Notes under the pieces: generated by a model
What the model was told of the DNA's origin: nothing
Databases searched by the model: none
What the model saw: only the letters and a program-made list of their open reading frames with translations
Source of the DNA: Eledone cirrhosa
Lineage: Eukaryota
Direction: 5' to 3'
NCBI GenBank assembly: GCA_964016885.1
Contig: OZ024742.1
Span: 204,042,001-204,106,000, forward strand
DNA: 64,000 nt
In this document: positions 2,446-37,400 of the stretch, in pieces
Layout: each line of letters begins with the position of its first letter
Position numbering within the stretch: the stretch's first letter is position 1
Made by a program: the position numbers and the translations under genes

Positions 2446-4345
2446 CTAAAGGAATAAGGGTGGGGAGTTCAGGCCGGGGGGAGTGTGGGTCTGTAAGATG
2501 AAGATAGTTCGTTGTTCGACCGTAAGGCGATTGGCGGGTGTTCCGTGGCACTGGCGTAGGCCACAGACTGTGAGATGGCGTGCGGAATGTCCAGGGCCAC
2601 CAAAGTGGCGGGCGATGGGGGAACTGCCCCCGAGACGAATATCCCGGAGGTGCTCCGTGACTCGGTCCGCCAGGCGACGTCCCGTCTGTCCGACATAAGT
2701 CGCGCTGCACTCCGTGCAGCGAAGTCCGTAGACTAGGTTGGAGGAGGTGCAGCGGAAGGTATGCCGGACCGAGAGAGAGTGGCCGTTGGGACCCTGGAAG
2801 GTGGTGGTGTTGGTGATGTGGGGACAGGTGTTGCAGCGGGGCCTAGAACAGGGAAAGGAACCGGGGGGAAACAGAGCGTGGGTTGGGGGGTAGGGAGCTG
2901 TGGACGAGGAGGGTGCGGAGATTGCGTGCGCGTTTGAAGGAGGGGAGTGGTGAGGTTGGGAAGATGTGGGAGGTGGAGGGGTCGGACTGGAGGCGTCGGA
3001 AGAGGCGGCGGATGGTGCGGTGGAGGGGTAAGGTGGAGGGGTGGTAGGTGATGGGGAAGGGGAGACGGTGGGTGGGTGTGCGGTGGCGTGGGGTGAGGGT
3101 GGTGGAGCGGGGGACAGCACGGGCGCGGGTGAGAGCGGTGTGGACGAGAGAGGGGGGGTAACCTCTGCGGATGAAATGGCTGATTAGGGAAAGGGCCTGG
3201 GACTCGAAGTCAGCATCACGGCTACAGAGGCGGCGGATCCTGAGAAGTTGGGAGTAGGGAATGGAGTGTTTAGTGTGGGTGGGGTGGGAAGAGGTGAAGT
3301 CGAGGTAAGAGTGGGAAGAGGTGGGTTTGAAGAAGGCGGAGGTGACGAGGGAGTGGTGGGAGGGGCCGAAGGCGACGGAGATGTCTAAGAAGTGGACGTG
3401 GGTGGTGGAGATAGAGGTGGTGAAGTGGAGGGAGGGGTGGAAGGAGCAGAAGAAGGAGAGAAAGGAGTCGAGCTGTTCTCGGGTGAGGGTCGTGGCTCCG
3501 ATACAGTCGTCAATGTAACAACCGAACAGTTCGGGCGTGGGGCCGGTGTACTGGGCAAAGATTTGGGCCTCAACATGGCCAACAAAAAGGTTGGCATAGT
3601 TCGGGCCCATTCTTGTACCCATGGCTACCCCCGTGACCTGTTGGTAAAACTCACCCGAGAAGGAGAAACAATTCAGGGTGAGGACCAGCTCGGCGAGGCG
3701 AAGGAGGGTGGGGGTGGAGGGAATGGGGGAGGGGTGAAGGTCGAGGTAGTGTTTGAGGGCGCGAAGGCCGTCGGCGTGGGGGATGACTGTATAGAGGGAC
3801 TTGATGTCTAGGGTGAAGAGGAAGGGCTGTGGGCCGGGTGGATAGGTGAAGGAGTCGAAAAGGCGCAGGGCGTGGTTGGTGTCGGAGATGTGGGAGGGGA
3901 GGGTGGTGACAAGGGGGGCGAGGAGGGAGTCGAGAAAGGCGGAGATGAGTTCGGTGGGGCAGTTGCAAGCGGAGACGATGGGGCGGCCGGGGTTGTCGGG
4001 TTTGTGGAGTTTGGGGAGGAAGTAGATGGTGGGGGTGCGGGGGTGCGGACGATGAGGTGGGAAGCGGTGGGGGGAGGAGGGAGGAGGCGATAAGGTCTTT
4101 GATGGTGGAGGAGACTTGTTGTTGGTAGAGGGGGGTGGGATCGGAGGGTAGAGGGCGGTAAAAGAGGGGGTTACAGAGCTGCCTGAGGGCTTCGGCCGTG
4201 TAGAGGTCCGCGCCCACACCACTACGGCGCCTCCCTTGTCCGCCGGTTTGATGACGATGTCATCTCGGCTACGGAGGGAGCGGAGAGCGAGGAGTTCGCC
4301 CCGTGAGATATTGTACCGTTTGGAACGGTGGCGGAAGTCGAAACG

Positions 4346-4347
<2 letters not shown>
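2446..4347 (-). pseudogene. Penelope-like RT-GIY-YIG polyprotein ORF, frameshifted
   Basis: ORF 2843-4222 (RT) and ORF 2446-3120 (Zn linker and GIY-YIG) are in different frames, and there are further shifts near 4050-4210. Confidence 0.88.

Positions 4348-4414
<67 letters not shown>
4348..4414. repeat. (AT)n microsatellite at the 5' junction of the Penelope-like element
   Basis: Pure AT run. Confidence 0.95.
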
Positions 4415-4417
<3 letters not shown>

Positions 4418-4627
4418 TGTATGTTTGTGAGCGTGTGTGTGTATATGTATAAATAAATAAGAAACGAGAGGATAAGTCCCGAATAGATATATTAGAACTT
4501 ATGTTATTTCAAAGTATTAAGTACGCGGAATGATGGGTGGTGCAGTGGTTTCCTTCACAGTATTTATTACTACTTGTGATTGTTAAGGCAACAAAAATGT
4601 GAACAGAGCAAACCTTAAGATCAAATA

Positions 4628-7079: not shown

Positions 7080-7627
7080 CTAGGATAGGTGTCGCATTAG
7101 AATCAGGTGTGTTTTCAGCAACGAGTAATTCAAGAACGTAAAGTGTGAGAAACACGGTAAGTCCTATAGCAATTTTTTCTCCACAATGACAGGGAAGCAG
7201 GAACGAAGCTAAGGTCATCACACATAACATCAGAGTCGGTGCAATGACAATATAATCGTAGTACAAAGACTTCCGGTCAATCTCGATTGTGAAGTGAATC
7301 ATGGGATGCCATCCGTCGCCAGGACAGCAATCACTGTCGGCTGCCACACGAGAAAGACTCACGTTGAGCAGTACAAATTCGCTGTTCTCAACGTATTTCG
7401 ATAGATCCGGTTTACTGGGTTCATTAAACAGGTTTAGCTGTTCTCCGTCGTACACCCATGACCCGAAACGGACAGTACATTGTTGACTATCATACGGAAA
7501 GTAGGTGACGTCCACTGAGCATGAAGATTTTATCATTAAGGGTACCATCCAACGGACTCTTCCTGACGGCTTGATCATTATTTTGCTTCCGGTCACGTTC
7601 ACATAACCAGCGTTGTTTTCTGATGCC
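7080..7627 (-). CDS. Internal coding exon of a nicotinic acetylcholine receptor-like (Cys-loop) cation channel subunit, from the ligand-binding domain to the M2-M3 loop
   Basis: It encodes a Cys-loop CSVDVTYFPYDSQQC, loop B FGSWVYDG, vicinal CC, pre-M1 RKSLYY, M1, a GEK filter, M2 and PDSNATPILG. The acceptor is ctctattccacag| at 7628-7630 and the donor is G|gtaagt at 7079-7074. Confidence 0.95.
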
Positions 7628-9871: not shown

Positions 9872-12800
9872 GGAAGTATCGAAGACAAATAACAAGGAAA
9901 GTAATCAAACTTTATTCAGTTGTAGCTACAGAAGAAACCAAAATTATAAATCGCATTTCTCTTGGAGTTGCGAACTTAATAATGATTTATTTAATTGTTA
10001 TAAAATGGCAAAAAACAATCCCTTCATTGGCTATATGAATAGAATGAAGCTACCCTGGGACGAAATGCACCCAGAGCTAAATTATTTCACAGCGAAACAA
10101 TTACGCCAACAAGCGGCGTTTGTTGAACGTAAATATAAGATAAATATTATTAATTGTATGTCCCCCACAACAAACATGGAATCAACAACACGTGCTACAG
10201 GTCGCCATGCTACTAGACTTCCTAGCAGCCAGGTCGAACAGCGCCTTGAAACAACTATGCCTGTAAGAAACTTGACACCATCTGTACCATCTAAGTCTAC
10301 CTCAAATTCTAGGGAAAACACTATCGATAAAAATAATAATCGAAGAAATAATAATAATAACCGAATAAATGTGACACCAAGTGTACCATCCGAGTCTACC
10401 TCGACTGTTGTGGAAAATACTATCGATAATGATAATCAAAAGTATAAACAATTGAAAATTTCCCTCAACGAAATCTTCCAGCGAGAAATAAACTCATGTA
10501 TAAATATCTCTCTGGCTGAACGTGTTAAAATGACAATGGTGAATAAAAAACCAAATAATGAAATACTACGTATTATTGACGAAATAGGGGATGAATATTT
10601 ACGACGGATAAAAACCCCAACATTTTGGCAAATCAACGCCTATTTATAAGCCTTAGCAATGACAGTGAAGCATTATCTTGGTGATAGCAGAGATATTAAC
10701 AAGAACAAAACACCACCAAAAATACCATCATATATAACTAAAATAGACAAAAAGAGTGCTGACCTACGAAAAAGCATAGGATATGTGACAATGCTCCTTA
10801 CATGCAAACAAACACAAAAAAAACCTCACTCCTCACCAACAAAGAGTGAAAAATAAAATAGAGACGATGTTTGGTAACAGTAGAACCAGAACTCTACAAT
10901 ATAAGCTGATCACCCTCAAACAAGAATTGAGAGCTGTTATCGAAAAACGCCGATACCTGAAGAAGGTAGATGAGAGAAAAGTGCTTAATAAAAGATTCAG
11001 ACGAAACCAAACATCAGTCTATAGAGATATGAAGGGCAAAATAATAAGTGTCACTTGGGTCCCATCCCAGAAAGACATAGATTCCTTTTGGAGAAAAATA
11101 TGGGGTGAAAAGAAAAATGTCAACCAAGATGCAGTGTGGCTAAGAGAAATCCGAAAGAACTATTGCTCCTACACTACAACAAAAACATACGAAATAAGTG
11201 AGGGTACCCTTGAGACTGTGATAGGAAAACTCCAGGAAGAGACATGATTGTCGGCTACTGGTACAAAAAACTAATATTCTATCGGAGGTATCTTACTGGC
11301 CTCTACCAACAAGTTTTTAAGGGAGATACAATTATACCAGAATGGTTGACATTAGCACAAACGTTACTGGTCCCCAAGAACAAAGACACCCACTTGGCAA
11401 AAAACTACCGAGCCATTGCATTCCAGAACCTGATGTATAAGATGTATACAGCCTGCCTGAACCTATTCCTCCAAGATCACTGTGAAAATAATAACATCAT
11501 CACAGACGAACAAGCAGCTGGAAAGAAAGGGGTTTGGGGATGTGCTAATCAACAAAACTGCGATGTCGGAGGTGCGACAACTTAGGAGGAATATGACTAC
11601 AGTCTGGCTGGACTACAGGAAAGCTTTCAATTCTGTTCCCCACTCTTGGATGATAGAGGCCCTCCAACTTGCTAAAGTCCAAGACATTATTGTCAGAGCC
11701 ATAGAGAGGCTGTCTTCTTCTTGGGCTACTATCCTAAGGTTAAGGACAGAGAGGGGGGACTCTATTTTCACTGATAAAATAAAATATTTCAGGGGGACAG
11801 TCTCTCTGTGATATTATTCATTTTGTCATTAAACCTCTTGTCCTTTCTGCTCAAGAAATGTGAGTGATACATCATTGTCTCACAGGAGGACAGAAATACG
11901 AACCTAACCCATAACTTCTTTGTGGACGATCTGAAACTCTATGCCAAGAACATGGATGGGATGAAGAAAAATCTTGACCTGGTTACAACGTTCTCAAAGG
12001 ATATAGGAATGGAGTTTGTCCAAGATAAATGCTCATACATGACTGTAAAGCGGGGAAAAACAACAACCCAATCTAGCAACATTGTCATCAATGGCCTAAC
12101 TGTTTCACCGATATGAGGACTGCTACAGATACCTGGGGATAGATGAGAACATATCCTATAATGATATCTGTAATAAAGAACGCGTAACCAGGGAATACTA
12201 TACCCGATTAAGAAAGATCTGGTCATCGGAACTCTCTGCGCAAAACAAAACAGTGGCTCACAACGTGTTTGCTGTGCCTGTCCTAACACCAACGTTTGGA
12301 ATACTCAATTGGACGATAGACGAAATCCGAGCAGTTGATGTTGGAACTCGAAAAATACTGAACAACACCGGAAACTTCCACATCAACAGTGACATAGACC
12401 GCCTTTACTTGAAACGTAAGCAGGGAGGCAGAGGCCTAACGTCAGTCCAGACAACATTTGAATGTCGCATCATATCTCTCCGACAACATCTACGAACCTC
12501 GAAGCGTAGTAGCCCGTTTCTCGAGCAAGTCTATCTGCATGAAACAGATAAGATCATGAGAGTTGGGAAGGAACTCCTTGAGAGATATTCCCTGTGTGAT
12601 AATCAAAAACTCACACCCAGGGATGTCGCTCAGCAGTATCGCACTGAATCCATGGATGAAAAACTGCATGCCTATCAGCAAAAAATCATGCATGGATATG
12701 TTGCCAGGAAACTCCAGAATGAGAGTAATATAGATAAGGAAAGTAGTCTATCTTGGACCAACAACCGCTATATTGGCTCCCACTTTGAAGGATACGCTTT

Positions 12801-13667
12801 TGCAATCCAGGAAGGAGATTAGCACGAAATACTTGATTCACAAAAGAGATAGGGATGCAGGCAAAACACCTAGATGTGATAACAAGTGCAGACTCTGCAG
12901 AACTAACATCGAGGATATCACCCATGTCATCAGCAGCTGTCCAAAGAGGTCATCGCGGTACTATCTACCTATGGGGTATGACGTACAATGCAGTTCGTAA
13001 AAAAGATAGCCCCGATAATAAACACATTAAAAGCTACAACAATGTGGAAGACATCCATGTACATAATATGAAAGAGTACTGGTGGAATTTTCCAGTAAAA
13101 ACTCCAATAAAATGCAGGCATAAAAGACCAGATATTATGATATGGGACAGGGAGAAGAAAACATGCACAGTAGTGGAAATTAACTGCCCAGCAGATGCCA
13201 ATATAATATCAAAGATCTGTGAAAAGGAGAATATTTATGCAGATACTCCACCCTGATTACACCTTCAGATTTATGCCTGTGATAATTGGGGCACTGGGAT
13301 ATGTTAGTAACTGTCTCAATACAAATCTTGAGAAGCTAGGCTTCACAGGAACAGAAAGAACACAACTAGTTAGGAAATTACAAGTACAATCCATTAATGG
13401 AACAGTAAAAATATGTAAAACATTCCAAAAATGTTGCATAAAATAACTGCATATACACATGTACAGATACAAAGCATATACACAAGCACACATACAACTC
13501 AAAACATACACATCCACACATACAATAACATCCATATCTACACATACATGCATACATATCTTCCTAGTTGATGTTGTATAAATTCCAATGAGAGAGTCTT
13601 GTGTCTATGTTAGAAACCGACTCTCTCTCTATTGGTAAAACTTTGTGAAATTATAAAACCAGAAGTC
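9872..13667 (+). mobile_element. R4/Dong-like non-LTR retrotransposon (RT, CCHC, restriction-like endonuclease), near full length and decayed, in (CATA)n
   Basis: Fragmented ORFs from 10005 to 13446 give GYMNRMK..W, KNYRAI, WLDYRKAFNSVPHSW, FFVDDLKLYA, DIDRLYLKRKQGGRGL, CRLCRTNIEDITHVISSC and RPDIMIWD..VVEINCP. The flanks are atacatacata and (CATA)n. Confidence 0.88.
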
Positions 13668-18291: not shown

Positions 18292-18314
18292 GTTGGTGGT
18301 AAAGAAAGAGGCAC

Positions 18315-20104
18315 TTACCTCTCTGCGTCCCGGGGTCCGGGCTGCTCAGTTTCCATGGGGGTGGTGGAGGGGTTGTTGGGTAGGGTGGTGGTTTGTGGTG
18401 GTGTGGGGGTATTAGTGTGTGGAGGGGTTGGGGTGTTTGGAATTGTGTCGGTGTTTGAGGAGCGGAGGGGAAAACCTTTCAGGAGGACGCGGTTGAGTGG
18501 CCTGGTGCAGGGTGGCCCCACGTCCTCGGGGTAAATGTTTTTCAATGTTTTGAAATTGTTAAGTGGGACTTTCACCATTTTCAGGTTAGGGAGTCCCATT
18601 GCCATTGCAAAATTCGGCCCTTCGGTTTGTACCGAAGGGTTGTTGTCTATTTTTTCTGTTAAGTTTTTATTGTTTTTGTTTATGTATGTGTATCGTTTTT
18701 GTGTTGTGTTTGTTTTTGCTTGTTGTTCTTGAGTGAGCTTGCGTTTTGTTGTCTGTTTTGTGTTGTCAGGTGGGATTATTTTTGTTTGTGTGGTGTGTGT
18801 ACGTTTTTTCCTTTTCACTTTTTGGAAGGGAGCCCCCTCGTCTTCCGAGGATATGAGCTCCTCTTCCGTATTGGAGGGGAGGGGTATATTTCCAGGTTGT
18901 GTATGAACTGCGTGTGTTTTTGTATTTGTGTTCTGTGGGGAGGGGCTGGGTGGGACCGTGTTTTGGGTTGTTTTCTTGAGCTGTTGTTGATGTTGTTGTT
19001 GTGGTGGTGGTGGTGGAGGTGGTGTTATTGGTTTTTGTTGTCGTTGTGGTGGTGATGGTAGTGTATATTGTTGCTTTTGCGGTGGTGGTGCTTGTTGTTT
19101 TTGTTGTTGTGGTTTTTGTAGCAGTGGTTTTTGTGTTGTTAGTAGAGGGCAGGCAATCCTCAGGTGACCTCTGCCAGCGCAGTTGTAACATGAGGGCCTC
19201 CTGCCTTCCACCGTAATATTAATAAAGGTTTGACCATCCAGTAGGACTCGGTCGGGTATTCCGGCGATTCTCTCAGGTGTCATCTGTAAGAGAACCTCCA
19301 GACTTTTCCCCCCGAACAGTCCACTGGTGGACTCCCCTGTGGATATTAGGATGTCCTTTTCTAGGTCTGTGAATCCTGTCAGGACGGACCAGATGTTTAC
19401 TTCTGGCATTGAGCTCCACATTATTAGTCTTTGTGTTCTTCCTTTATATGTGGGGAAGAAGGTGTATTGTGGTGACACTATAGGTGCCACCGAGCATTTT
19501 TGAGCCAGCATTTCGTCCTTCATTCGGACCATAATGCTGGCATACAGCTTTCCTCTTTCAATAAAGAGTATGTCTTTTTTTATGTCTTTCAGAACCAGCT
19601 CAATTTGACTTTCTGTTAATTGAGCTGGATTTCTTGTTGCGTTGGATATAGTCCTGAAGGTTATGGTATTCCTATATACCTGTTGACGAACTTCTTCTGG
19701 GGAGTTGATCGTAAAAGAACCATCCTCCCCAAAAGATACGTATTTTCTGGCATTTAGCAAGTTCTGCTTAGCGTTTGTAATGTCTATGGGCTTGTATTCA
19801 ATAGCTTTCCTGACCGCTTGGGCAAAAGAAACTTTGCTGTGTCTTTGTTGCTTTCGCTTCGTTCATTGTTGCTTGTTGTTGCAATGTTGTTGGTTTCATC
19901 TTTTGTGGTGTTTATTTCCTTGTTATTTTTATCAAAATTTAGGTTTTCACTCGTATTAACAGTCTTTTTTCCATTCGAGAGGAGGGGTTGTTCAACAGTT
20001 TGAATTGTTGTTCCCTCTTTCTCGCTTTTTTTGGTTAGCTTCCAATATGGCTTCCTCGTTTTCAATGATATCGATAAACATTTTGAATTAAATATTTTTT
20101 TCAC
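18315..20104 (-). pseudogene. Tx1-like family A ORF1 (zinc knuckle, Q/P/T-rich), one frameshift near 19790
   Basis: ORFs 19784-20104 and 18315-19760, with VEGRRPSCYNC..GH...C. Confidence 0.8.
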
Positions 20105-21295: not shown

Positions 21296-21326
<31 letters not shown>

Positions 21327-21332
21327 AATAAT

Positions 21333-24300: not shown

Positions 24301-27300
24301 GAATTGTGGACAGCCTATGCTAAACCTATCTATTTCCCTACAAAATACTCTATCTAGATATGATCTGGATGACCCTATGCGATTTGTCCAAGTCCACATT
24401 GGCACATTCGGGAAATCCATTCGGTACCTGTCAGACAGTTCAAAACGTCTGAGCAGGTTGGTGAGACTCTTGCACCCTCCTCTCCTATCCGCTAATCCCA
24501 CACAGTCCCAGCGTGCATCTAAGATCCCATTCCAGTCACCCACTAACACTAAAGAGCGGGACGTTCCAAAAAGTTCTCCAGACGCCGGAAGAAATCAGGC
24601 CGCCCTGCTCCTTTCGGGGCATAGACGGCTACTAGCCTGAAAGCTTGCCCGTCTCCGCTGGTCACGTCCAGCACCACCAACTTACCTTCTGGGTCCAGGA
24701 ACATGGCCCGTATGGCGAGATCCAAACCTCTCCGAAAAATCACAGCAACTCCTCCCCCGATCCCGGACGGCTGGGAGATCCGTACACATCGTAGCCGCCG
24801 AAGATCGGTGCGAAGGCCCGTGCTTCGGAGATTCTGGTCTCGCTGATGGCCACTACATCTATGTTTAGTGACCTGAGGTCGTTGAGCAGGTGGCCCTGCT
24901 TCCATGACGACCCCAAGCCACGCACATTTATGCTGCCTATTCTGAGTGTAGGTCATGTTGAAATGGAGTGGAAAAAGATGGGAAAGACCACTTACCTTAC
25001 TTCTCGTAGAGGAAGGACGGTTTCTCCATCCTTTTCACGGCTTGTGGCCTCCTCCGGAAGGATGTCCTTATAAATCCTCCTGGAGAGTGCTTGTCGGAAG
25101 TCTCCGATGTCTTTGGGAATTTTTTGTTTTAGTGTCATGTACGTTTTCTGTGTGATGCGAGTGATTTGTATGTGTGGAGGTGGTGTGAACTTTTGGGTTG
25201 TTGTATAGTCTTTTTCTGTGATGCTGGTGTTGTGTTGGATGTAGTGTAATAATTGGTTGTTGTTCAAATATAATGCTGTGTAGTGTGTATCGTTTTGGTT
25301 GTTTTGTTTTGTTTGTGTTTGTTGTGGGTTTGTTTCTGTTTCGCTTTTTGGTTACTTTTGTGGTGTAGGTGATGGTGGTGTTGGGGTTAATGATGGTAAT
25401 GGTGTTCGTGTTTGGGGTGATGGGGTTGGTGATGCTGGTGTGGATGGTGGCATATCTGTCCTAACTTTTTTGTTTGATAGTTTATTTGTTTCCCTCTGTA
25501 TTTTGTTTTTGGAGGGGGAAAGAAGAGAATCTTTTCTTTTTGGTTTCTTTTTTTCTTTTTTCCTGATACCGTTTCCCACTCCTCGTCGTTACAATCTGTC
25601 TCCAGTTGTGATAGGCCGGGGCGTGGAAAATCCTCCACAGGCGTTAGTTTTGGTTGTGGCGTGGTTGATGGTGTAGGCGCTGGTGCTAGTTCTGGCGCGT
25701 TGGGCGGTGGTGGTGTTGGTTTTGTTACTGTTGTTGGGGTTGTTGCTGTTACAGTTGCTACAGTTGTTGCTGCCATCTCTGCTGCTGGTGGTGTTGATGG
25801 TTGAGTCACCTGGGTGGGTAGGAGAGGTGGCCTCAACCTTATAGCCTGACGGCAGAAAGCCCTTAGGTGGGTTCCTTCACCACAAACGACACATCTAGGC
25901 CTTCTGCCCTCGACAATTACGGTGAGGTGGCTGCTGTCAGTGAGGTCTATTACCTCTGGGATCTCCTCAATGCTTTTTTGATCCGCTTGGATCAGGAGCT
26001 CCATCCCAGATCCGGACCAGTTCTCCTGCTTTTCTTTCGCTATTTCGATTATCTTGGTGTTGGCTTCGATGCCGGCGAGGACGGCAGCTATTAGCCAGGG
26101 AATTTCGATGGCCGGTGGAACGTGGGTCACCCTGATCTTTACGAGTCTCTGGCCACAATAGCTTGGGACGAGTGTGAAGTCGTCACTTCTTAATGGGGCC
26201 ATGGAGTGTTCTCTAGCCTCCTGTGGTGTTTCAAAGAACACATCCACGGTTCCATACTTCTGCCCACGTCTGATGTAGGGTTTTTTTGCCCACACATGTC
26301 CCAAAGCTTTTTTGATTTGGGACTCGGATGCCCGTTCCACTCGGCGCGATTTTATATTAATTGTTCGATAAGACACGGTGCATAGGCGCCGATGCTCCAT
26401 TTTGTTAGATGTGTGTGGGGGGGGGGGTGAGACTGACTCTGTACCCATCTTTCTTTACCATTTTGTTTGGCTTCCTCTAATTTCTCCTGAGTTACCTGAA
26501 ATGCTTCGCACTGTTTTGCTACTCTGGCAAAACTCAGGGTGGTTTTCTTAATGTCATTGTTGCTGTTGTTGTTATCGTTATTTTTGTTATTATTAATTTT
26601 AGTTTCGCGGTGAATTGGCAGTATCGGTAGAGGGTTGGATTATGCTTTCCAGCATAGTTAAGTCCCTTTACGATCTGAGTTCAATTCCCGCCGAGGTTAA
26701 CTTTGCCTTTCATCCTTACGGGGTCGATAAAATAAAGTACCAGTAATGTACTGGGATAATTGCTGGCCTTGTGCCAAAAAGTAGAAACAATTATTAATTT
26801 TAGTTTCAGTTGTGGTGGTGGTGGCGTGAGTGGTGTTCGGTGTGGAAGAGTTCATTTTGGTTGAATTCATTTCGATATCACGAGTTAATTTATTTTTTTT
26901 CCTTTTGTTTCTGTTGTCGCGGTGGTGTTGGGGGTGGTTGTTGTCTCGGTGGTGGTGGTGGTGGCGGCTTTAACACCTGCAGTCATTGGTAATGGCGGGA
27001 AATGAATGTCTGCCTGAGACAAATTTAAAATATTGCTACTGCTTATATTTTTTTAGTGTTGGCAAGCGTAGTAATATTTACAATGGTTGTGTCGGTGTGA
27101 GGTGTTAGTTTGTGAGAAAGGAGTGACTCTGAGTCAGCCATGATGTTTCAAAAAAAATTTTTTGTTTGATAATTATAAAAGTTTAAATTTTGGGCTCAAG
27201 GCCCCAATCATTTTGGGTGTCCTTTTCAGATAACAATGTATGTGCACTTATATACAATTAACAATAAAATTTTCCATGAATGGCAATTTTGAACAACTAA

Positions 27301-27354: not shown

Positions 27355-27420
<66 letters not shown>
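27355..27420. repeat. (AAT)n microsatellite
   Basis: Pure run. Confidence 0.95.
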
Positions 27421-27771: not shown

Positions 27772-28557
27772 TTATATCAGCACAAGATCAGTGTCTGCCA
27801 ACAAAAAATTACCAAGCCAACATAATAAAAAATGGATGCAGCCCATTATGCCGTATATGCAAAAAACAACCAGAGACCATTGACCATATAATTTCAATGT
27901 GCAGTCCTATAGCTCCAACCGAATACCTAAACAGGCATGACATAGCTGCACAATACATACATTGGATAATGTGTAAGCATTTTGACCTGCCCCATCAAAA
28001 GATTGGTGGGAGCATCAACCACCTCCCATACTTGAAAAAGATCACATCTCAATCTTGTGGAACTTTAGCATCCAAACAGACCGAAAAATAGATGCAAATA
28101 GACCTGATATAATATTGAAGGACTTTAAAAAGAGGGTATGCCTGCTAATTGATATGTCTGTTCCAATAGACAAGAATGTATCTATAAAAACATTTGAAAA
28201 ATTGAGCAAGTATAAGGACCTGGAGATAGAAATTGGAAAAATGTGGAAATTGAGAACTAAAACAATACCAAAACATAGGCGCTCTGGGAATGATACCTAA
28301 GGGGTCTAATGATTACTTATCGCAAATACCAGGAAACCCGCGCATAGGAGAAATACAAAAGATAGTACTAATGGGAACTGCCCATATACTAAGGAAGATT
28401 CTGTCAATATAAGTACATCACAAGTCTAAACACTAAAGATGCATGTGTGAGTATGTATGTTCTTTCTTGAACATGGCGGACCTTGTTGTCTCTTGAGGTC
28501 ACTGGTTGTGACTTGGTGATAACTCGTATGAACATAAAGCAAGATAAATGCAACTGT
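27772..28557 (+). mobile_element. 3' fragment of a third R4/Dong-like family (CCHC + RLE)
   Basis: AQDQCLPTKNY, CRICKKQPETIDHIISMC, RHD and RPDIIL..LIDMSVP..K..KY, with (TAA)n on both sides. Confidence 0.88.
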
Positions 28558-28574
28558 AATAATAATAATAATAA

Positions 28575-31235
28575 TGACATTGGAAAGTTTGAGTCCCTAC
28601 TGAATGGGACACTAAAAAACATAGACACTAAAAATAGACTGGAAATAAAGTACAAAACTAGGAGGAAAAAGCAAAATATTATCATAGAGGAACTAAAGCA
28701 ACGCATTATAGCAAAGAGTGCAAAAAGTAGGCTATACGAGAGCAGAGTCAGTCAGTATAGACAGAACCGCATGTTTGACAACAACCAGAAGATGCTGTTT
28801 GGACAGCTTGAAGGGAAAGAAAGAGGCAACGACTTGATCCCTGAGGCGGAACAAACTAAGATATTCTGGAGAGGAATATGGGAGCAGGATGTTAAACATA
28901 ATGACCAGGCAGTGTGGATTGAGACAGTACAAAAGGAGATTAGTGAACAGGCACACCAACAAACTGATTTGAGTATCACAGTTGAAACTCTTAAGGGGCA
29001 GGCCAAAAAACTAACCAACTGGAAATCACCAGGGCCAGATGGTGTGCAGAGGTATTGGATTAAAAATATAACATCCCTCCACTCGAAACTGACAACCATG
29101 TTCAATGACTGCTTGATGTCAGGTAAGGTACCAGAGTGGTTAACAAAAGGTACCACAGTTCTGGTAATGAAAGTCCGAATCAAGGGTAATGATGTTACCA
29201 ACTATAGACCTATCACATGTCTGTCCGTAATGTGGAAACTGTTGACAAGCATTATGTCTGAGGAAATCTACCATCACCTCCACACAGACAAGTTGTTACC
29301 GGATGAACAGAAAGGACGCCGAAAGAAGTCCCGTGGTACAAAGGACCAGTTACTTAGTGATAATATGGTGATGAGGAATTGCAAGAGGAGACACACTGGT
29401 CTTGCCATGGGATGGATAGACTACAAAAAGGCATTTGACATGGTGCCTCATTCTTGGATCACCAAAAGCCTAGAGATCTTCGGGGTGGCAGATAACATCA
29501 GACAGTTGTTGGGCAAAAGTATGAAGTCCTGGAAAACAGAGTTAACATCAGCTGGAGAATCCTTGGGACGCGTGAAGATCAAGAGAGGTATCTTCCAGGG
29601 AGATAGTCTGTCCCCTCTGTTGTTTGTCCTTGCCCTGATGCCCCTGACCATTATACTGCGAAAAGTGAGAGCAGGATACAAGTTGGGAAAGGGAGAGCTT
29701 ACCATCAATCACCTCCTCTTCATGGACGATCTTAAGCTCTTCGGAAAGAGTGAGAAGGAGTTGGATGTGCTTGTTGACACTGTCCGTATTTTCAGCAATG
29801 ATATATGTATGCAATTTGGTATTAGTAAGTGTGGAGTCATTGTGATGAAGAGGGGTAAATTGAGCAGAAGTAACGGAATCCAGGTACCAACAGGTGAGAT
29901 GATAAAGGAAATTGACTCTGAAGAAGGATACAAGTATTTGGGTGTTCTGGAGGCTGATGACATCAAGAACAAAAAATGAAGGAATTGTTAAGATCTGAAT
30001 ACATTCGGAGAGTAAGGAGCGTATTAAAGTCACATCTGAACAGTAGGAATGCCATAAGTTCAGTAAATTCCCGAGCTGTGTCTATTATTAGGTACAGTGC
30101 GGGAATTCTGAGATGGAATGTTGCTGAACAAAAAAAAAATGGATAGGAAGACTAGGAAGCTATTGACTATATACAACATGTTCCACAAGAGGAGTGATGT
30201 CGATAGACTCTACTTAAGGAGATCTGAAGGTGGAAGAGGTCTTATTAGCATAGAGGACTGTGTTCAGATGGAGAAAAACAACCTACACAAATACGTGACT
30301 GATAGTAAGGAGCCAATGCTGAGAATTGTACTGAAGGAAAGGACAATAGACCAGGGGACGTCCAAGGAGGAAATAACATCAAGGAGAAAGAGCAGCCTTC
30401 AGGAAAAATCCCTTCATAGTACCTTCTTTGAGAAAACTGAATTCAGAGATCCACAGATATGGAACTGGTTGAAAAGAGGACACCTTAAAAAGGCTACAGA
30501 AGGAATGCTAATGGCTGCGCAAGAGCAGGTCCTCAAAACGAAGTGGCTGAAACACCATATTTACAAGGAGGAGGCTAGCCCACTGTGTAGGATCTGTGGA
30601 GAGAGAGAGGAGACTGTGGATCACATTGTATCCGAGTGTAAACACCTAGCCCAGACTCACTATAAAGGCTGGAGACATGATGTGATGGGCAGGGTGATCC
30701 ACTGGCACCTATGCAAAGTAAACAATTTACGACATTCTGAGAAGTGGTATGAGCATAAGCCAGAGTCGGTGATAGAAAACGATCAGGTGAAGGTGCTGTG
30801 GGATTTTAGAATACAAACGGACAAGAAACTGGAACACAATAGACCTGACCTGGTGGTTTTGGACAAGGAAAAAAGATAGTGCCTGATTGTGGATGTGGCC
30901 TGCCCATTCGACACGAGAGGGCAAGAGAAGGAGAGGAAGAAAATTAACCGATACCAGGACTTTAACTGGGAGGTGAAAAGGATTAGGAACTGCTATGAAG
31001 TCAAAGTGGTCCCGATTGTCATAGGCGCACTAGGTACTATCTCAAAAAGTTTCCAGGGATGGTTAAAGAAAATTGGCCCCTTCACGCTTTTTGGAGCGCT
31101 TCAAAAGGCATGCTTGCCGGGAACAGCAAGAACCCTCCGATACGTCCTGAATATCTGAGGCTGCAGTTAGTGGCTTGATATTCATTTCAACAAACTTTCC
31201 AGTTAAATAACATCAATGACTGATACTCAAAGAAC
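28575..31235 (+). mobile_element. R4/Dong-like non-LTR retrotransposon family 2, 5'-truncated, in (TAA)n
   Basis: WKSPGPDG, NYRPITCL, WIDYKKAFDMVPHSW, GIFQGDSLSPLLF, HLLFMDDLKLF, YKYLG, CRICGEREETVDHIVSEC and RPDLVVLD..DVACP. It has a short 3' UTR followed by (TAA)n. Confidence 0.93.

Positions 31236-31328
<93 letters not shown>
31236..31328. repeat. (AAT)n microsatellite shared by the tail-to-tail Dong-like and Tx1-like elements
   Basis: Pure run of about 31 units. Confidence 0.95.
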
Positions 31329-31329
<1 letters not shown>

Positions 31330-31571
31330 TTTTCTTTATTAACCACAAGGGTTCACATAAAGTAGACATTAAGGACAGTACAGGACAATACAGGACGGTA
31401 CAAATGGGCATTTCTGCGTGTAAAAAAACAGAGGTTGAAATAAAATAACAAAGAAAAATTCCCCAATAGGGGGGAGACTTCCAAGGGACATTTGTGGAGA
31501 AAGCCCATTAAAAGACCACAGTGGCCCTGACCACCAGGGCAAGTGCCCTCTCCCAGTTTTCCACATTTAAT

Positions 31572-34500
31572 TTACAGACACATACTCAGAGAAGGCCCAT
31601 TCATTCGGGCCATACTTGCTTCTCTCACCCATCTTTCAACAAAATGCTGGGAAGAGAGCACTTCCCTCTCTACCCTGATTTTCCTTTTCAAACGAAATTT
31701 GAAAAAGTTAATCAGGGCATCACCGAAGAGGTAAGTGCTCGTCTTCAGCCCTTTCAAACGTGTCCACCATACTATCTCTTTCGCCATGGCCACCAGACAG
31801 ATAAAAACTGCCTGCCCTTCCCGGCTAAAGGAAGGGGGCGGGGCAATCCTCACGATGGACTCAGCTGATAGCTGGATCCGTCCTACACGTGACAGCAGGT
31901 GTTCGACATAAACCCACAAGTCAGCAATGCTCGGACACTGGACGAGTGCGTGCAGGACGGTTTCGTCGCCCTGCGCGCATCTCGGACATGCCCGGCTGAC
32001 GGCACCTCCATGCCTGTAGAGTTTATCCCGAACTGGCAAAGCTCCTCGGTAGCACTGCCAGGCCAGGGATTTCTGGAAGTTGTCCATAGGCCCCGGCCCG
32101 AAAGTCCTTCCGAAGAGATTGGCTAGTTGATTTTCGTCGACGCCTAGAGTTTCTCCAAGTACGTCGTCGCTCTTCCCCTCCACTAATCCCCTATAGAACG
32201 CCAAGGTGGAGTTTCCACCGATCACATTGCCCGATTGGTCGAGGGCTGTGAGCGCCTGAAGACATTCCAGTCTCCAAGCGCTCCCTCTCGGTCTTCGCTT
32301 GACCCAGGACTGCAGCTCCGTCAAGGAGACGAGCTGGGGAAAAACGTGTCTCGCAAACGGCGACCACACCTGATCACCGTCGAGGAAGAGGTGGAGATGT
32401 CGTAGCCTGAGCGCGTGTCTGCGCATCATCAGCCACGGCATGCCCAGCCCTCCACGTAGCGGGTGTTGACAGCAGATGGACCGCCTGACCATCGGAGCGC
32501 GTCCCTTCCACAAGAAGCGAAAGAGCAAACGCTCCAGCGCAGTCAGGCGGGGCTTAGGACAAGCTACGACGGTCAGGCGGTAGTAGATGACGGATGCGAT
32601 GTACGCATTCGCAACCTCCGCTCGACCTTTCAGGGATAGCTTCCTCTCGGCGCATTTCTGGGTGAGAGAAGCCACTCTGCTCGTCACCTCGTCCCAGTTT
32701 TTGTCCGTCTGGAGGTCTGGACCGAACCAGACCCCTAGCAATTTAACGGGTCCGTCCGTCCAGCGCCCGACGACGCTGTTGGACGGCATGGACCTGCCTC
32801 TCCAGGTGCTGAGCTGCAGGCCCACTGACTTTTCCTGGTTGATCATTGCTCCTGTCACCGCTTCGTATTCTCTTAGTGTAGTGCCGATCGCCCTCGATGT
32901 GTTTGGCGTTCGACACCACTACGGTGACATCGTCGGCATATGCTGACACGGATCTTCCGCATCCTAGTTCGCCCGGGACCCCCCTCAACGTCTCCAGTTT
33001 GTGCAGTAATGGCTCGAGAGTCAATACGTACAATAGGGACGAGAGGGGACATCCTTGGCGGGCCGAGCGCATGATGTTGAACGGTTCCGAAAGGTGACCG
33101 TTCACTCTCACTACAGAGCAGATGTCGCTTGCATGGCAGCGATCCAGCCTCTGAAAACGGGCCCAAAGCCAGCCGCCCTCAGGACTGCCGCTAGGTAACG
33201 ATGGTCGACCCTATCGAAGGCTTTCGACTGATCTAAATTGATCAAAGACCCACCCGTGCCAGGTTCCCTAGCTACCCTCTCTACGATGTATCGCATGATG
33301 TGGAGGTTGTCGTTGATGGATCTGTCGGGAATGGCGCATGTCTGTGCCTCTCCCACCAGACCACCAACAACTAGCGCCAACCTCTTTGCTAGCACCTTGG
33401 CCAAAATCTTGAACTCTGTGTTTAGCAGAGTTATGGGCTTAAAATTATCTATGTTATCCCCCTTGTTCGGATCCTTTCTCAGCAGCGCCACCGCTCCTCG
33501 GCTCACAGAGCTGGGAATTCTCCCGTTCTGTTGCCAGTTGCAGTAGACGTCCGCCAAGAGGCCTCCGAACAAGTTTGGCATTTGTACGTAAAGTTCATAG
33601 GGCAGACCATCCAAACCAGGCGATTTACCCCTTGTGCAACTAGTCATTGCATCCCGTACTTCAGCGGTTGTTATCGGCTTTTCGCAACACTCCGCCTCAG
33701 TGGCCGAAAGCCGCGGCAGTCCGTCGAGGTAGACACTAAAGTCCATCCCTTGATCCGGCCCGCCACTGCCCCCGAACAGTTGAGCGAAGTGTCGCTGAAA
33801 AGCTTCACACATTTGCCCGGGATCGAGTAGCATGCGCCCGTCGTGGTCCACCAAAGACCGGATCGTGGCTTTGTTGCCACGACGCGCCTCCGCCACTCGG
33901 GCCCATTGAACGGCTTTCGTCCCCTCGTGTCTGAGAGCACGCACCCTAGCTCTGACAACGCAGCCTTCGTGCTTTGCATTGAAGAATTGGTCAAGGGCCA
34001 ATTTCGCCGCAAGTACGTCGGTCGCGATGCTTTTGCTAAGCGCCTCATCTAATTTTCTAACTAATTCTCCCTCTGCTCTATTTTTCTCTATTGCTAAAGT
34101 CTTTCTAAACCTAATGGACTTTATTCTAATTGCTCTTTTCAGAGCAAACCACCACTTGTTGTTGACGATGGCCCCCGTCAACGCCCGCTTAACTAGTTCG
34201 CTAATCCGGTCTCTGTAGGCCTTGCGCGCTGGTAAGGACGCGTTTAGCTTCCAGTAGCCGGGTCCTTGTCTATGAAGCCTATCTAAGTCAAGCACACAGA
34301 TCACGAATTTGTGGTCGTGTAGCTGACTATCTTGAATTGTGGACAGCCTATGCTAGACCTATCTATTTTCCTACAAAATACTCTATCTAGATATGATCTG
34401 GATGACCCTATGTGATTTGTCCAAGTCCACATTGGTACATTCGGGAAATCCATTCGGTACCTGTCAGACAGTTCAAAACGTCTGAGCAGGTTGGTGAGAC

Positions 34501-34990
34501 TCTTGCACCCTCCTTCCCTATCCACTAATCCCACACAATCCCAGCGTGTATCTAAGATCCCGTTCCAGTCGCCCACTAACACTAAAGAGCGGGACGTTCC
34601 AAGAAAGGTCTCCAGACGCCGGAAGAAATCGGGCCGCCCTGCTCCTGTCGGGGCATAGACGGCCACTAACCTGAAAGCTTGCCCGTCTCCGCTGGTCACG
34701 TCCAGCACCACCAACTTACCTTCTGGGTCCAGGAAGATGGCCCGTATGGCAAGATCCAAACCTCTCCGAAAAAGCACAGCAACTCCTCCCCCCGATCCCG
34801 GACGGCTGGGAGATGAGTACACATCGTAGCCGCCGAAGATCGGTGCGAAAGCCTGTGCTTCGGAGATTCTGGTCTCGCTGATGGCCACTACATCTATGTT
34901 TAGTGACCTGAGGTCGTTGAGCAGGTGGCCCTGCTTCCATGACGACCCCAAGCCACGCGCATTTATGCTGCCTATTCTGAGTGAGGTCAT
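31572..34990 (-). pseudogene. Element C ORF2 (APE endonuclease, RT, C-terminal Zn finger), with small frameshifts
   Basis: ORFs 34301-34990, 33111-34304, 32743-33111 and 31572-32858 tile a complete protein. Confidence 0.9.
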
Positions 34991-35024
34991 GTTGAAAAGG
35001 AGTGGAAAAGATGGGAAAGACCAC

Positions 35025-37019
35025 TTACCTTACTTCTCGTAGGGGAAGGACGGTTTTTCCATCCTTTTCACTGCTTGTGGCCTCCTCAGGAAAGATGTCC
35101 TTATAAATCCTCCTGGAGAGTGCTTGTCGGAAGTCTCCGATGTCTTTGGGGAATTTTTGTTTTAGTGTCATGTACGTTTTCTGTGTGATGCGAGTGATTT
35201 GTATGTGTGGAGGTGGTGTGAATTTTGGGGTTGTTGTGTAGTCTTTTTCTGTAATGCTGGTGTTGTGTTGGATGTAGTGTAATAATTGCTTGTTGTTCAA
35301 ATTTAATGCTGTGTAGTGTGTATCGTTTTGGTTGTTTTGTTTTGTTTGCGTTTGTTGTGGGTTTGTTTCTGTTTCGCATTTTGGTGACTTTTGTGGTGTA
35401 GGTGATGGTGGTGTTGGGGTTAATGATGGTGATGGTGTTGGTGTTTGGGTTGATGGGGTTGGTGATGCTGGTGTGGATGGTGGCATATCTGTCCTAACTT
35501 TTTTGTTTCTTAATTTATTTGTTTCCCTCTGTATTTTGTTTTTGGCGGGGGAAGGAAGAGAATTTTTTCTGTTTTGGTTTCTTTTTTTTTTTTTCCGGAT
35601 ATCGTTTCCCACTCCTCGTCGTCACAATCTGTCTCCAGTTGTGATAGGCCGGGGAGTGGAAAATCCTCCACAGCCGTTAGTTTTGGTTGTGGCGTGGTGG
35701 ATGGTGTAGGCGCTGGTGCTAGTTCTGAAGCGTTGGGTGGTGGTGGTGTTGGTTTTGCTGGTGGTGGTGGTGGTGTTGGTTTTGCTACTGTTGCTGGGGT
35801 TGTTGCTGTTATAGTTGCTTCTGTTGTTGCTGCTACAGTTGTTGCTGCCATCTCTGCTACTGGTGGTGTTGATGGTTGTGTCACTGGGGTGGGTAGGAGA
35901 GGTGGCCTCAACCTTTTAGCCTGACGGCAGAAAGCCCTTAGGTGGGTTCCTTCACCACAAACGACACACCTAGGTCTTCTGCCCTCGACAATTACCGTGA
36001 GGTGGCTGCCGTCAGTGAGGTCTATTACCTCTGGGATCTCCTCAATGCTTTTTTGGTCCGCTTGGATCAGGAGCTCCATCCCAGATCCGGACCAGTTTTC
36101 CTGCTTTTCTTTTGCTATTGCTATTATTTTCGTGTTGGCTTCGATGCCGGCGAGGACGGCCGCTATTAGCCAGGGAATTTCGATGGCCGGTGGAACGTGG
36201 GTCACCCTGATCTTTACGAGTCTCTGGCCACAATAGCTTGGGACGAGTGTGAAGTCGTCACTTTTTAATGGGGCCATGGAGTGTTCTCTAGCCTCCTCTG
36301 GTGTTTCAAAGAACACGTCCACGGTTCCATACTTTTTCCCACGTCTGATGTGGGTTTTTCTTGCCCACACATGTCCCAAAGCTTTTTTGATTTGGGACTC
36401 GGATGCCTGTTCCACTCGGCGCGATTTTACATTTATTGTTCTATACGACACGGTGCATAGGCGCCGATGCTCCATTTTATTAGGTGGGGGGGTGGGGGTG
36501 AGGCTGACCCTGTACCCATCTTTCTTTACCATTTGTTTGGCATTTTCTAAATCTTCCTGAGTTACCGTAAATGCTTCGAATTGTTTGCTACTCTGGCGAA
36601 ACTGAGGGGGGGGGGGTTATAATGTCATTGTTGTTGTTGTTGCTATCGTTAATATTAATTTTAGTTTCAGTTGTGGTGGTGGTGACGTCAGTCGTCTTTG
36701 GTGGGGAAGAGTCCATTTTGCTTGATTTCATTTCGACATCACGAGTTAATTTATTTTTTTCTTCTTTTGTTTCTGTTGTCGCGGTGGTGGTGGTGGTTGT
36801 GGTTGTCGCGGTGGTGGTGGTGGTGGAGGCTTTAACACCTGCAGTCATTGGTAATGGCGAGAAATGAATGTCTGCCTGAGACAAATTTAAAATATTGCTA
36901 CTGCTTATATTTTTTTTTGTGTTGGCAAACGTAGTAACATTTACAATGCTGGTGTCGGTGTGAGCTGTTATTTTGTGAGGAAGGCTTTCAGCTGCTTCGT
37001 GCAGAGGTGAAGTAGCCAT
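35025..37019 (-). pseudogene. Element C ORF1 (CCHC knuckle, T/P-rich), frameshifted at or near homopolymer runs
   Basis: ORFs 36588-37019, 35510-36532 and 35025-35612. Confidence 0.82.
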
Positions 37020-37248
37020 TTTTCTTCAAAGAAATTTTTTGATAATAATAAAAGCTAAAATTTTGGGCACAAGGCCCCAATCTTTTTGGGTGTCCTTTTC
37101 GGAAAACAATGTATGTGTGCTTATAAACAGTTAGCAATAAAATTTTCCATAAATGGCAATTTTTAACAAACGGAAATAACAAACCTTTGCGGAGCTCACG
37201 ATGATACGATTTACTACGTAGGTCGCCAATAATAATAATAATAATAAT

Positions 37249-37400
37249 GATTTCATTTATTAGCCGCAAGGGCCGAGATGTAGTGGACAATACAAAGACA
37301 GGGACAGTGGGGGTTTACAATGAGGTCGAGTAAAAGTGCACAATGGCAAGACTAATTTAACAATTTTATAAAAATATAAAATAAACTATGCATAAATATA
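37249..37400 (-). mobile_element. 3'-terminal fragment of another Tx1-like element
   Basis: tttattagccgcaagggc...ggggttta...gtcgagtaa resembles the 3' ends of elements A and B, and it follows (AAT)n. Confidence 0.55.

Follow-up and report, generated by a model that had tools for sequence, protein, structure and literature searches.

A conserved splice-donor motif at the ORF1/ORF2 border of L1/Tx1-like LINEs in the octopod Eledone cirrhosa

The window analyzed here is a stretch of 64,000 nucleotides from Eledone cirrhosa (assembly GCA_964016885.1, contig OZ024742.1, positions 204,042,001 to 204,106,000 of the forward strand). It carries three related minus-strand copies of a long interspersed nuclear element (LINE) with a pair of open reading frames, named ORF1 and ORF2. 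Two of them belong to family A (31.3-37.2 kb and 21.3-27.3 kb) and are 93% identical, and the third is a family-B copy (14.9-19.9 kb) of about 70% identity. The subject of this study is a splice-donor motif located where ORF1 ends and ORF2 begins. The features of the first family-A copy are listed in Table 1. Its ORF1 has two frameshifts, near 36600 and 35597, as judged by tblastn against the intact ORF1 of locus L049, and its ORF2 has three, so this copy is dead. Open frames were found in other natural copies, with an ORF2 of 1,139 residues and an ORF1 of about 600-665 residues containing a CCHC knuckle.

Table 1 Features of the family-A element and corresponding donors in the other two copies (window positions; the slash in a motif marks the exon end)
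Feature	Position	Strand	Remarks
L1/Tx1-like LINE, family A, full-length but frameshifted	31329..37227	-	Flanked by two (ATT)n runs; ends located
ORF1, CCHC-knuckle protein, ending ...LREVR-TAA	35025..37019	-	tblastn against the intact ORF1 of L049; CCHC seen in alignment
Splice-donor motif AAG/GTAAGT, cut between 35029 and 35028	35023..35031	-	TAA stop at 35027-35025 in family A
Pyrimidine-rich spacer, 81% C+T, with CAAC at its end before the ORF2 ATG	34991..35022	-	Predicted pairing with the donor
ORF2 start codon, (C)CAAC-ATG-G context conserved	34988..34990	-	ATG-anchored counts, 16 lineages
AGA codon of ORF2 Arg5 (MTSLRIG); AG at 34978-34977 is the proposed acceptor, unsupported as a splice site	34976..34978	-	
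ORF2: APE endonuclease, RT, zf-RVT	31572..34990	-	Frameshifts near 34316, 33129 and 32891
Second donor-like AAG/GTAAGT inside APE, Glu-Gly-Lys codons	34714..34722	-	Unconserved; internal control
Best-scoring candidate acceptor of A, A' and D: T-rich tract and CAG in the 3' untranslated region	31414..31440	-	73 nt before AATAAA; home-made matrix
AATAAA polyadenylation signal	31335..31340	-	Followed by (ATT)n tail, 31328-31236
Same donor, second family-A copy	24990..24998	-	
Same donor as GAG/GTAAGT, family-B copy	18313..18321	-	ORF1 tail unrelated, spacer 27 nt, ORF2 about 70% identical

On the minus strand the border reads GAA GTA AG/G at 35036-35028, with the final GT of the motif at 35024-35023 and a pyrimidine stretch at 35020-34994. 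This stretch stops 13 nt short of the AG in the Arg5 codon, and the ORF2 ATG and four codons lie in between. The original prediction for this site had described AG/GTAAGT with an embedded TAA stop, followed by a pyrimidine tract, an ATG and an AG, and had proposed a 52-nt intron that would fuse ORF1 to ORF2. A base-by-base listing placed all of these elements where they had been described. The distance from 35028 to 34977 is 52 nt, and the join is in frame in family A, with a phase-2 donor (as in the intact ORF1 of L049) and a phase-2 acceptor.

Sequence comparison assigns the element to the L1/Tx1 group of non-LTR (long terminal repeat) retrotransposons. An ORF2 relative (P0001) carries the Pfam domains Exo_endo_phos, RVT_1 and zf-RVT and is nearer to human L1 ORF2p (E 1e-51) than to R2 (E 1e-19). 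The CCHC residues are invariant in six aligned ORF1s, the Pfam zf-CCHC match being slightly below cut-off. A separate zinc-knuckle ORF1, a 3' AATAAA, a simple-repeat tail and 5' truncation were all found, and the depth of read contigs over the element dropped from 3' to 5' in run X1, a DNA-like gradient. The named relatives of the element proteins were from Octopus species and Argonauta.

A total of 16 lineage representatives, with labels assigned in this analysis, were compared at the border. The representative of E3, which failed the ATG test, and the old locus L221, which had no ORF1 upstream and no clear donor, were excluded. The lineages beyond A and B were found by ORF2-start or APE peptide queries in which the donor was absent, and the ATG, without its surrounding context, was part of the search pattern. 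Identity of ORF2 to family A ranged from 61 to 97%, and four-fold identity between the main clades was about 0.45-0.55. The donor columns were nearly uniform: G at -1 in 15 lineages, G, T and A at +1, +2 and +3 in all 16, A, G or T at +4 in 12, three and one, G at +5 in 15 and T at +6 in 15. The columns from -15 to -4 upstream reached at most 11/16 and those downstream at most 12/16; among lineages the flanks were unrelated on both sides of the donor. The spacer was 27-53 nt long and 71-81% pyrimidine, and the ATG context from -4 to -1 was C, A, A and C in 12, 13, 13 and 12 of the 16. The motif scored at least 7/9 as a donor in 13 lineages, and the variants seen were GTAGGT, GTAATT, GTATGT and A, G or C at -2.

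Among the stored junctions a donor-like motif was present in 52/54 of family B, 19/20 of C, 11/15 of E and 5/5 of D; roughly half the B loci had been retrieved with a query that included the donor, and selection of donor variants biased the count for family A. The four donor-less E copies, considered as a possible active subfamily without the donor, were decayed and scattered on the tree, forming no clade. Of 155 four-fold ORF2 columns, 27 (17%) were invariant over the 11 lineages with a long ORF2. Compared with these columns, conservation of the four donor positions not forced by a phase-2 stop had a P of about 0.003, the columns being taken as independent. The donor motif at the junction is real, its conservation across lineages sets it apart from chance, and the pattern of conservation looks like the result of selection.

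The reading frame of ORF1 at the motif was fixed by a conserved block near the end of ORF1, and frames for F, G, H, I and M, each a single decayed copy, are tentative. In A, A', D, B, B2, J and K the donor was in phase 2, and its TAA or TAG was the ORF1 stop, directly after Arg. In C, C2, E4 and most other E copies it was in phase 1, where Gly-Lys (or Gly-Arg) is read across the motif and a TGA or TAA stop begins at +6. In E1 it was in phase 0, and ORF1 continues nine codons past it (V-S-K...). Open ORF1s confirmed these frames in A (L049), C (L203), E4 (L285) and B2 (L288). The ORF1 frame thus changed at least three times on the tree with the motif kept, and in every lineage with a known frame the donor lay at the ORF1 stop or up to nine codons before it. 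Since the frames differ and the motif stays, the motif was kept as nucleotides and not as a stop codon, and an in-frame fusion was not kept. The original prediction had named a lack of conservation of GTAAGT beyond the TAA itself among its refuting outcomes, and such conservation was found even in families C and E, where TAA is not the stop. This result supports two of its three suggestions, a U1-binding element and a donor used with a distal acceptor; the third, the fusion intron, failed each of the genomic tests below.

In A' (L131, L146, L160 and L239) a family-C ORF1 tail without its donor is followed by about 12 extra codons and then by the donor ACG/GTAAGT, as though ORF1 had been lengthened and had retained the donor at its new end. 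When six ORF1s were used in a profile search, 150 relatives were listed, seven of which reach the C-terminal block. Two of these, known as protein only, have the termini ...PPDQGK and, in Argonauta hians, ...PPEGKS, and such ends fit a phase-1 donor outside this genome. In the RefSeq models XP_014781783.1 and XP_036364761.1 the ORF1 tails become different at roughly the expected place of the donor. P0083, P0097 and P0131 are distant ORF1 relatives with a shared C-terminal 'FP.DVG' block and an ORF1 domain without a Pfam match. A word-indexed search for ORF1 relatives gave no match.

Two controls were available for the frequency of such donors. The outgroup consisted of 80 L1/Tx1-like loci on metagenome contigs (22-34% identity, including some near-duplicates), 11 of which had no ORF2 start and were unscored. 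Within 100 nt upstream of the ORF2 start none of the remaining 69 reached 8/9 and three reached 7/9. From the composition of the element, the chance of AGGTAAGT in a given 60 nt is about 0.001. A 6-kb element can nevertheless hold such a donor by chance, as family A has a second 8/9 site 309 nt downstream, inside APE. In the seven lineages where this second site was located it scored from 3/9 to 8/9, with 3/9 in B and B2, and its decay shows the fate of a donor made by codons. In an Octopus sinensis RefSeq model, 'tectonic-3-like' (P0003, residues 41-101), an APE piece of this clade, 61 residues long, stops precisely at the second donor (Asp-Pro-Glu), which suggests either exonisation or a gene-prediction artefact. 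The host nicotinic acetylcholine receptor (nAChR) exon at 7627-7080 ends in the same AG/GTAAGT.

An RNA fusing ORF1 to ORF2 would carry ORF2 and should therefore be copied into the genome, and the proposed intron was examined on this basis. The unspliced family-A junction occurs 2,374 times as an exact match in the genome, and no intronless family-A copy was found among the exon ends enumerated below, giving an upper bound of about 0.13%. Copies precisely lacking the 52 nt, a search for which the original prediction had suggested, were not among them. Spliced copies make up about 1.8% of full-length human L1 (PMC5860796), a rate that would predict about 43 spliced family-A copies here.

The exon ends enumerated were those followed by letters other than GTA. 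The 14-nt exon end was followed by a letter other than G at 54 sites, namely 50 element copies with point changes or small indels and four non-elements; among the 31 family-A exon ends followed by A, neither an intronless copy nor a join to the 3' untranslated region (UTR) was present. Among 33 exon ends with G and then a letter other than T there were 32 point changes or small indels and one 346-nt deletion ending after GG. The 23 listed exon ends with GT and then a letter other than A comprised 20 point changes or small indels, two inversions and one non-element patch. Variant junction matches were likewise unspliced in family B (14/14) and family C (23/23). The last three variant search patterns ended in a letter other than A and so miss about one quarter of cases.

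The 346-nt deletion, which starts from the donor in L183, was rejected as a splice: it ends after GG and not AG, is out of frame and shows microhomology. At the site where it ends, 93 of 110 sites read GGAGACGG and one reads GGAGACAG. Foreign sequence past the donor in L371 proved to be a 24-nt patch without ORF1 upstream. Two copies (G000:C4:167572065 and G000:C12:27057050) invert a few bases past the donor and are typical 5' inversions. No full ORF1-ORF2 fusion was present among the 150 listed ORF1 relatives, and a 176-residue fragment combines parts of the two at a point distant from this site. Read-through past the ORF1 stop into ORF2 was rejected, as the offset differs between A and B and is out of frame. 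An ORF2-only transcript, considered for family-E copies truncated at one shared base 39 nt before the donor, was also rejected, with two such copies among the first 100 of 924 matches listed. Read contigs X1, X4, X5 and X6 over the element had no joint at the donor among the 15 of 1,146 joints listed, and X1, X2, X5 and X6 at the junction had none among the 15 of 28 joints and 24 of 366 loose ends listed, neither of which is evidence on splicing.

Signals around the donor were compared in the same lineages. The donor agrees at eight of nine positions with the U1 consensus CAG/GTAAGT, as in a U2-type intron, but no conserved YAG stands straight after the pyrimidine tract and the donor-acceptor frame is not kept. 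In an ATG-anchored comparison the Arg5 AG, itself partly required by the search pattern, lay 41-67 nt from the donor and was YAG in 7/16 lineages and AAG or GAG in 9/16. No acceptor common to all families was found. An acceptor scan with a home-made matrix, under which T-rich 3' UTRs score acceptor-like by composition, gave a 3' UTR site the top score in A, A', D, E1, E2 and one C copy out of two, but not in E4, B2, B, K or E3; five lineages had no 3' end to scan. In most families an acceptor-like AAG lies about 2,520 nt downstream, within a Phe-Leu-Trp-Lys coding block. Pairing between spacer and donor is predicted by folding in each of the 16 lineages, at an opening cost of 5-14 kcal/mol. 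For family C a 9-bp stem covering the whole donor is predicted, and recurring variants in its 3' arm keep the pairing by wobble, as transitions often do. AATAAA or ATTAAA occurs within 500 nt upstream of the donor in 9/13 lineages, the end of ORF1 being A-rich and the count having no composition control.

These observations suggest that the motif is probably a selected U1 site. More specifically, it may serve as a lone docking site for the U1 small nuclear ribonucleoprotein, partly masked, that protects the full-length RNA rather than starting an intron, a proposal that we rate somewhat short of even. The pyrimidine spacer would fold back on the donor and lower its access, as predicted by folding. 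A U1 particle at the donor would keep the AATAAA/ATTAAA hexamers of the A-rich ORF1 end from directing cleavage and polyadenylation, and the full-length two-gene RNA would result from this suppression of early polyadenylation. ORF2 would then be made by ordinary termination-reinitiation. Consistent with this proposal, the retrotransposed copies are unspliced and ORF2 keeps its own ATG in a conserved context.

Several points weigh against this protective docking site. U1 binding, masking and the effect on RNA ends are inferred from DNA sequence. The lineages share ancestry, which the P value ignores by treating columns as independent, so that it is a rough figure. C2, K and M score only 5-6 of 9, and F, G, H, I, J, K and M each rest on one old copy. 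Masking exceeded spacer shuffles in 1/16 lineages only (C, z 4.5); a conserved hairpin, though present in the folds, was accordingly rejected, and masking may be a by-product of pyrimidine richness. No hexamer lies within 500 nt in C, D, K and G, and the hexamer count is uncorrected for the A-rich ORF1. The strong 3' UTR acceptor in A, A' and D favours a splicing explanation instead.

In that explanation splicing from the donor, at a regulated rate, would reach a distant acceptor, either in the 3' UTR or downstream in tandem arrays, and remove ORF2; the resulting ORF1-only mRNA would yield ORF1 protein in excess. The position of the donor at or at most nine codons before the ORF1 stop in all lineages with a known frame is suited to such an mRNA. 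For A, A' and D, the acceptor with the highest score anywhere in the element is a 3' UTR site at 72-73 nt from the AATAAA that follows it; joining the donor to it would add 20 codons and reach a stop ahead of the signal in A, A' and one D copy out of two. The best acceptor of E1 and E2 is also in the 3' UTR. An ORF1-only mRNA would lack ORF2 and the CCCC-TAT-TGGGG block of the 3' UTR and might thus escape genomic copying, and the spliced gag RNA of Copia is a precedent (PMC5580714). However, a good 3' UTR acceptor is absent from the young families E4 and B2 and from one C copy out of two, none of the 31 family-A exon ends followed by A joins the 3' UTR, and the T-rich 3' UTR scores by composition in a home-made matrix. 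We regard this explanation as unlikely, although it is the main alternative.

The block formed by GG-TAAGT, pyrimidine spacer and CCAAC-ATG could instead be a termination-reinitiation signal for ORF2, its likeness to a donor being incidental. It overlaps or just precedes the ORF1 stop, 27-53 nt before the conserved ATG context, several lineages read TAAGTAA or TAAGTGA with stops in two frames, and L1 and SART1 use termination-reinitiation with local signals (PMC5972666). But the position of the motif relative to the stop varies (phases 0, 1 and 2), and a second stop is absent from A, B, F, H and J. The variants GTAGGT, GTAATT and GTATGT and the A, G or C at -2 moreover match the tolerances of splice donors. 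We rate a translation signal as improbable.

Simple inheritance of a motif that arose by chance in the clade ancestor, aided by the stop codon and the Gly-Lys/Arg codons, would require no function. All lineages are related, 17% of the four-fold columns are invariant as well, the APE holds a second perfect donor by codon accident, and the outgroup L1/Tx1 elements do without a donor. Against this, the motif stayed while both flanks became unrelated, the spacer varied over 27-53 nt and the ORF1 frame changed at least three times; the APE site decayed to 3/9 in B and B2; and the four donor-less E copies form no clade, so no donor-less active lineage was seen. Inheritance without function is quite improbable. 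Finally, the switch of the original prediction, a 52-nt intron giving an ORF1-ORF2 fusion protein, is very unlikely and hardly credible: it is in frame in phase-2 families and in 9/16 lineages no other AG lies between the donor and that of Arg5, but there were no intronless copies in family A against some 43 expected at the human L1 rate and none in the B and C variants, the join is out of frame in the phase-1 and phase-0 lineages (C, C2, E, G), the AG is not YAG in 9/16 and only 41-42 nt from the donor in the B families, the conserved ATG context falls inside the supposed intron, and the listed ORF1 relatives include no full fusion.

A broader proposal is possible if doubtful: an octopod LINE clade might carry a U1-operated, hairpin-gated donor that chooses between full-length genomic RNA and an ORF1-only mRNA, the latter arising by a 3.6-kb intron that drops ORF2 or by the firing of an early poly(A) signal. 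If true, the ORF1:ORF2 ratio of a LINE, thought to be set by translation only, would be set in a retrovirus- or Copia-like manner. This bears on the question of how LINEs obtain much ORF1 and little ORF2 from one unspliced, uncut RNA. Splice sites in LINEs are usually seen as harmful accidents; this one was kept through frame changes and in thousands of young copies, and it offers a defined 9-nt element to test. Several thousand strong donors spread in the genome (2,374 exact family-A copies alone) could also splice into host transcripts.

The Tx1-like label of the element rests on apparent microsatellite targeting and on the L1-Tx1 families reported for Octopus vulgaris (PMC13282606). Families A, C and E adjoin (ATT)n runs, often in head-to-tail arrays of mixed families about 5.9 kb apart, and the runs at which family B terminates are (TCTG)n or (TCTA)n. 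Such ends were noted at 31236-31328, 21296-21332, 27355-27420 and 37228-37250 of the window and at L033, L042, L044, L050, L284 and L285. Most inspected element ends abut (ATT)n or (TCTG)n/(TCTA)n, tail and target being unseparated and without a background count, and this looks like microsatellite targeting of the Kibi/Koshi type. A hairpin-like CCCC-TAT-TGGGG block and TGTGG..AATAAA are common to the 3' UTRs of A, C, E and B-like elements (e.g., 31455-31470 on the minus strand of the window), the remaining 3' UTR being different. The shared block is a candidate recognition signal for ORF2p.

Elsewhere in the window, a host exon of a nicotinic-receptor-like ion channel (7080-7627, minus strand) carries Neur_chan_LBD and Neur_chan_memb. 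No upstream nAChR exons were found by motif in the window, and the LINE copies may lie in an intron of this gene in sense orientation. About 506 copies of a 51-bp satellite (86% matches) form an array that occupies 38270-64000 and runs past the window end. A Penelope-like element (2446-4498, minus strand) shows RT followed by a GIY-YIG-like frame, both weak Pfam matches. Another LINE family on the opposite strand (28471-30879 and 9873-12822, plus strand), with RT and zf-RVT and about 24% identity to the ORF2 described here, is inserted between the family-A copies, and at other loci its 3' ends often adjoin these elements.

The literature searched, which consisted mostly of titles and abstracts with few subscription journals and no Repbase Reports, gave no paper on a LINE whose ORF1/ORF2 border carries a conserved donor, and splicing is unmentioned in the available text of the octopus LINE papers (PMC13282606, PMC9115989). 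TART transcripts were among the LINE literature compared (PMC1636488). Kibi and Koshi of the Tx1 clade resemble the present element in their APE-RT, CCHC ORF1 and microsatellite sites, but the apparent targets here are (ATT)n for A, C and E and (TCTG)n/(TCTA)n for B, and the available account of Kibi and Koshi describes no donor at the ORF border (PMC4494074). Human L1 (SpORF2, SpIREs) has functional donors in its RNA, and the spliced forms can be retrocopied (PMC5860796, PMC2896524). These donors lie in the 5' UTR and remove parts of ORF1 or the promoter, and the text available from the same sources describes none at the ORF1 stop.

The major splice donors of HIV-1 and foamy virus act through U1 binding without splicing, and their access is set by RNA structure (PMC3694450). 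They lie close to the 5' end, protect a defined LTR poly(A) site and also take part in splicing (PMC3694450), whereas the LINE donor is in mid-element and its guarded site is inferred. EVD, a Copia element of Arabidopsis, belongs to the LTR elements; it has a single long frame, its conserved acceptor has been mapped, and splicing creates its gag stop (PMC5580714). The octopod LINE, studied here as DNA, differs in having two ORFs, an ORF1 with its own stop and no conserved acceptor. In both, a canonical donor is conserved where the structural gene ends and borders the enzyme gene; EVD makes a gag-only RNA from this donor, and binding of U1 there also keeps the full-length transcript from terminating prematurely (PMC5580714).

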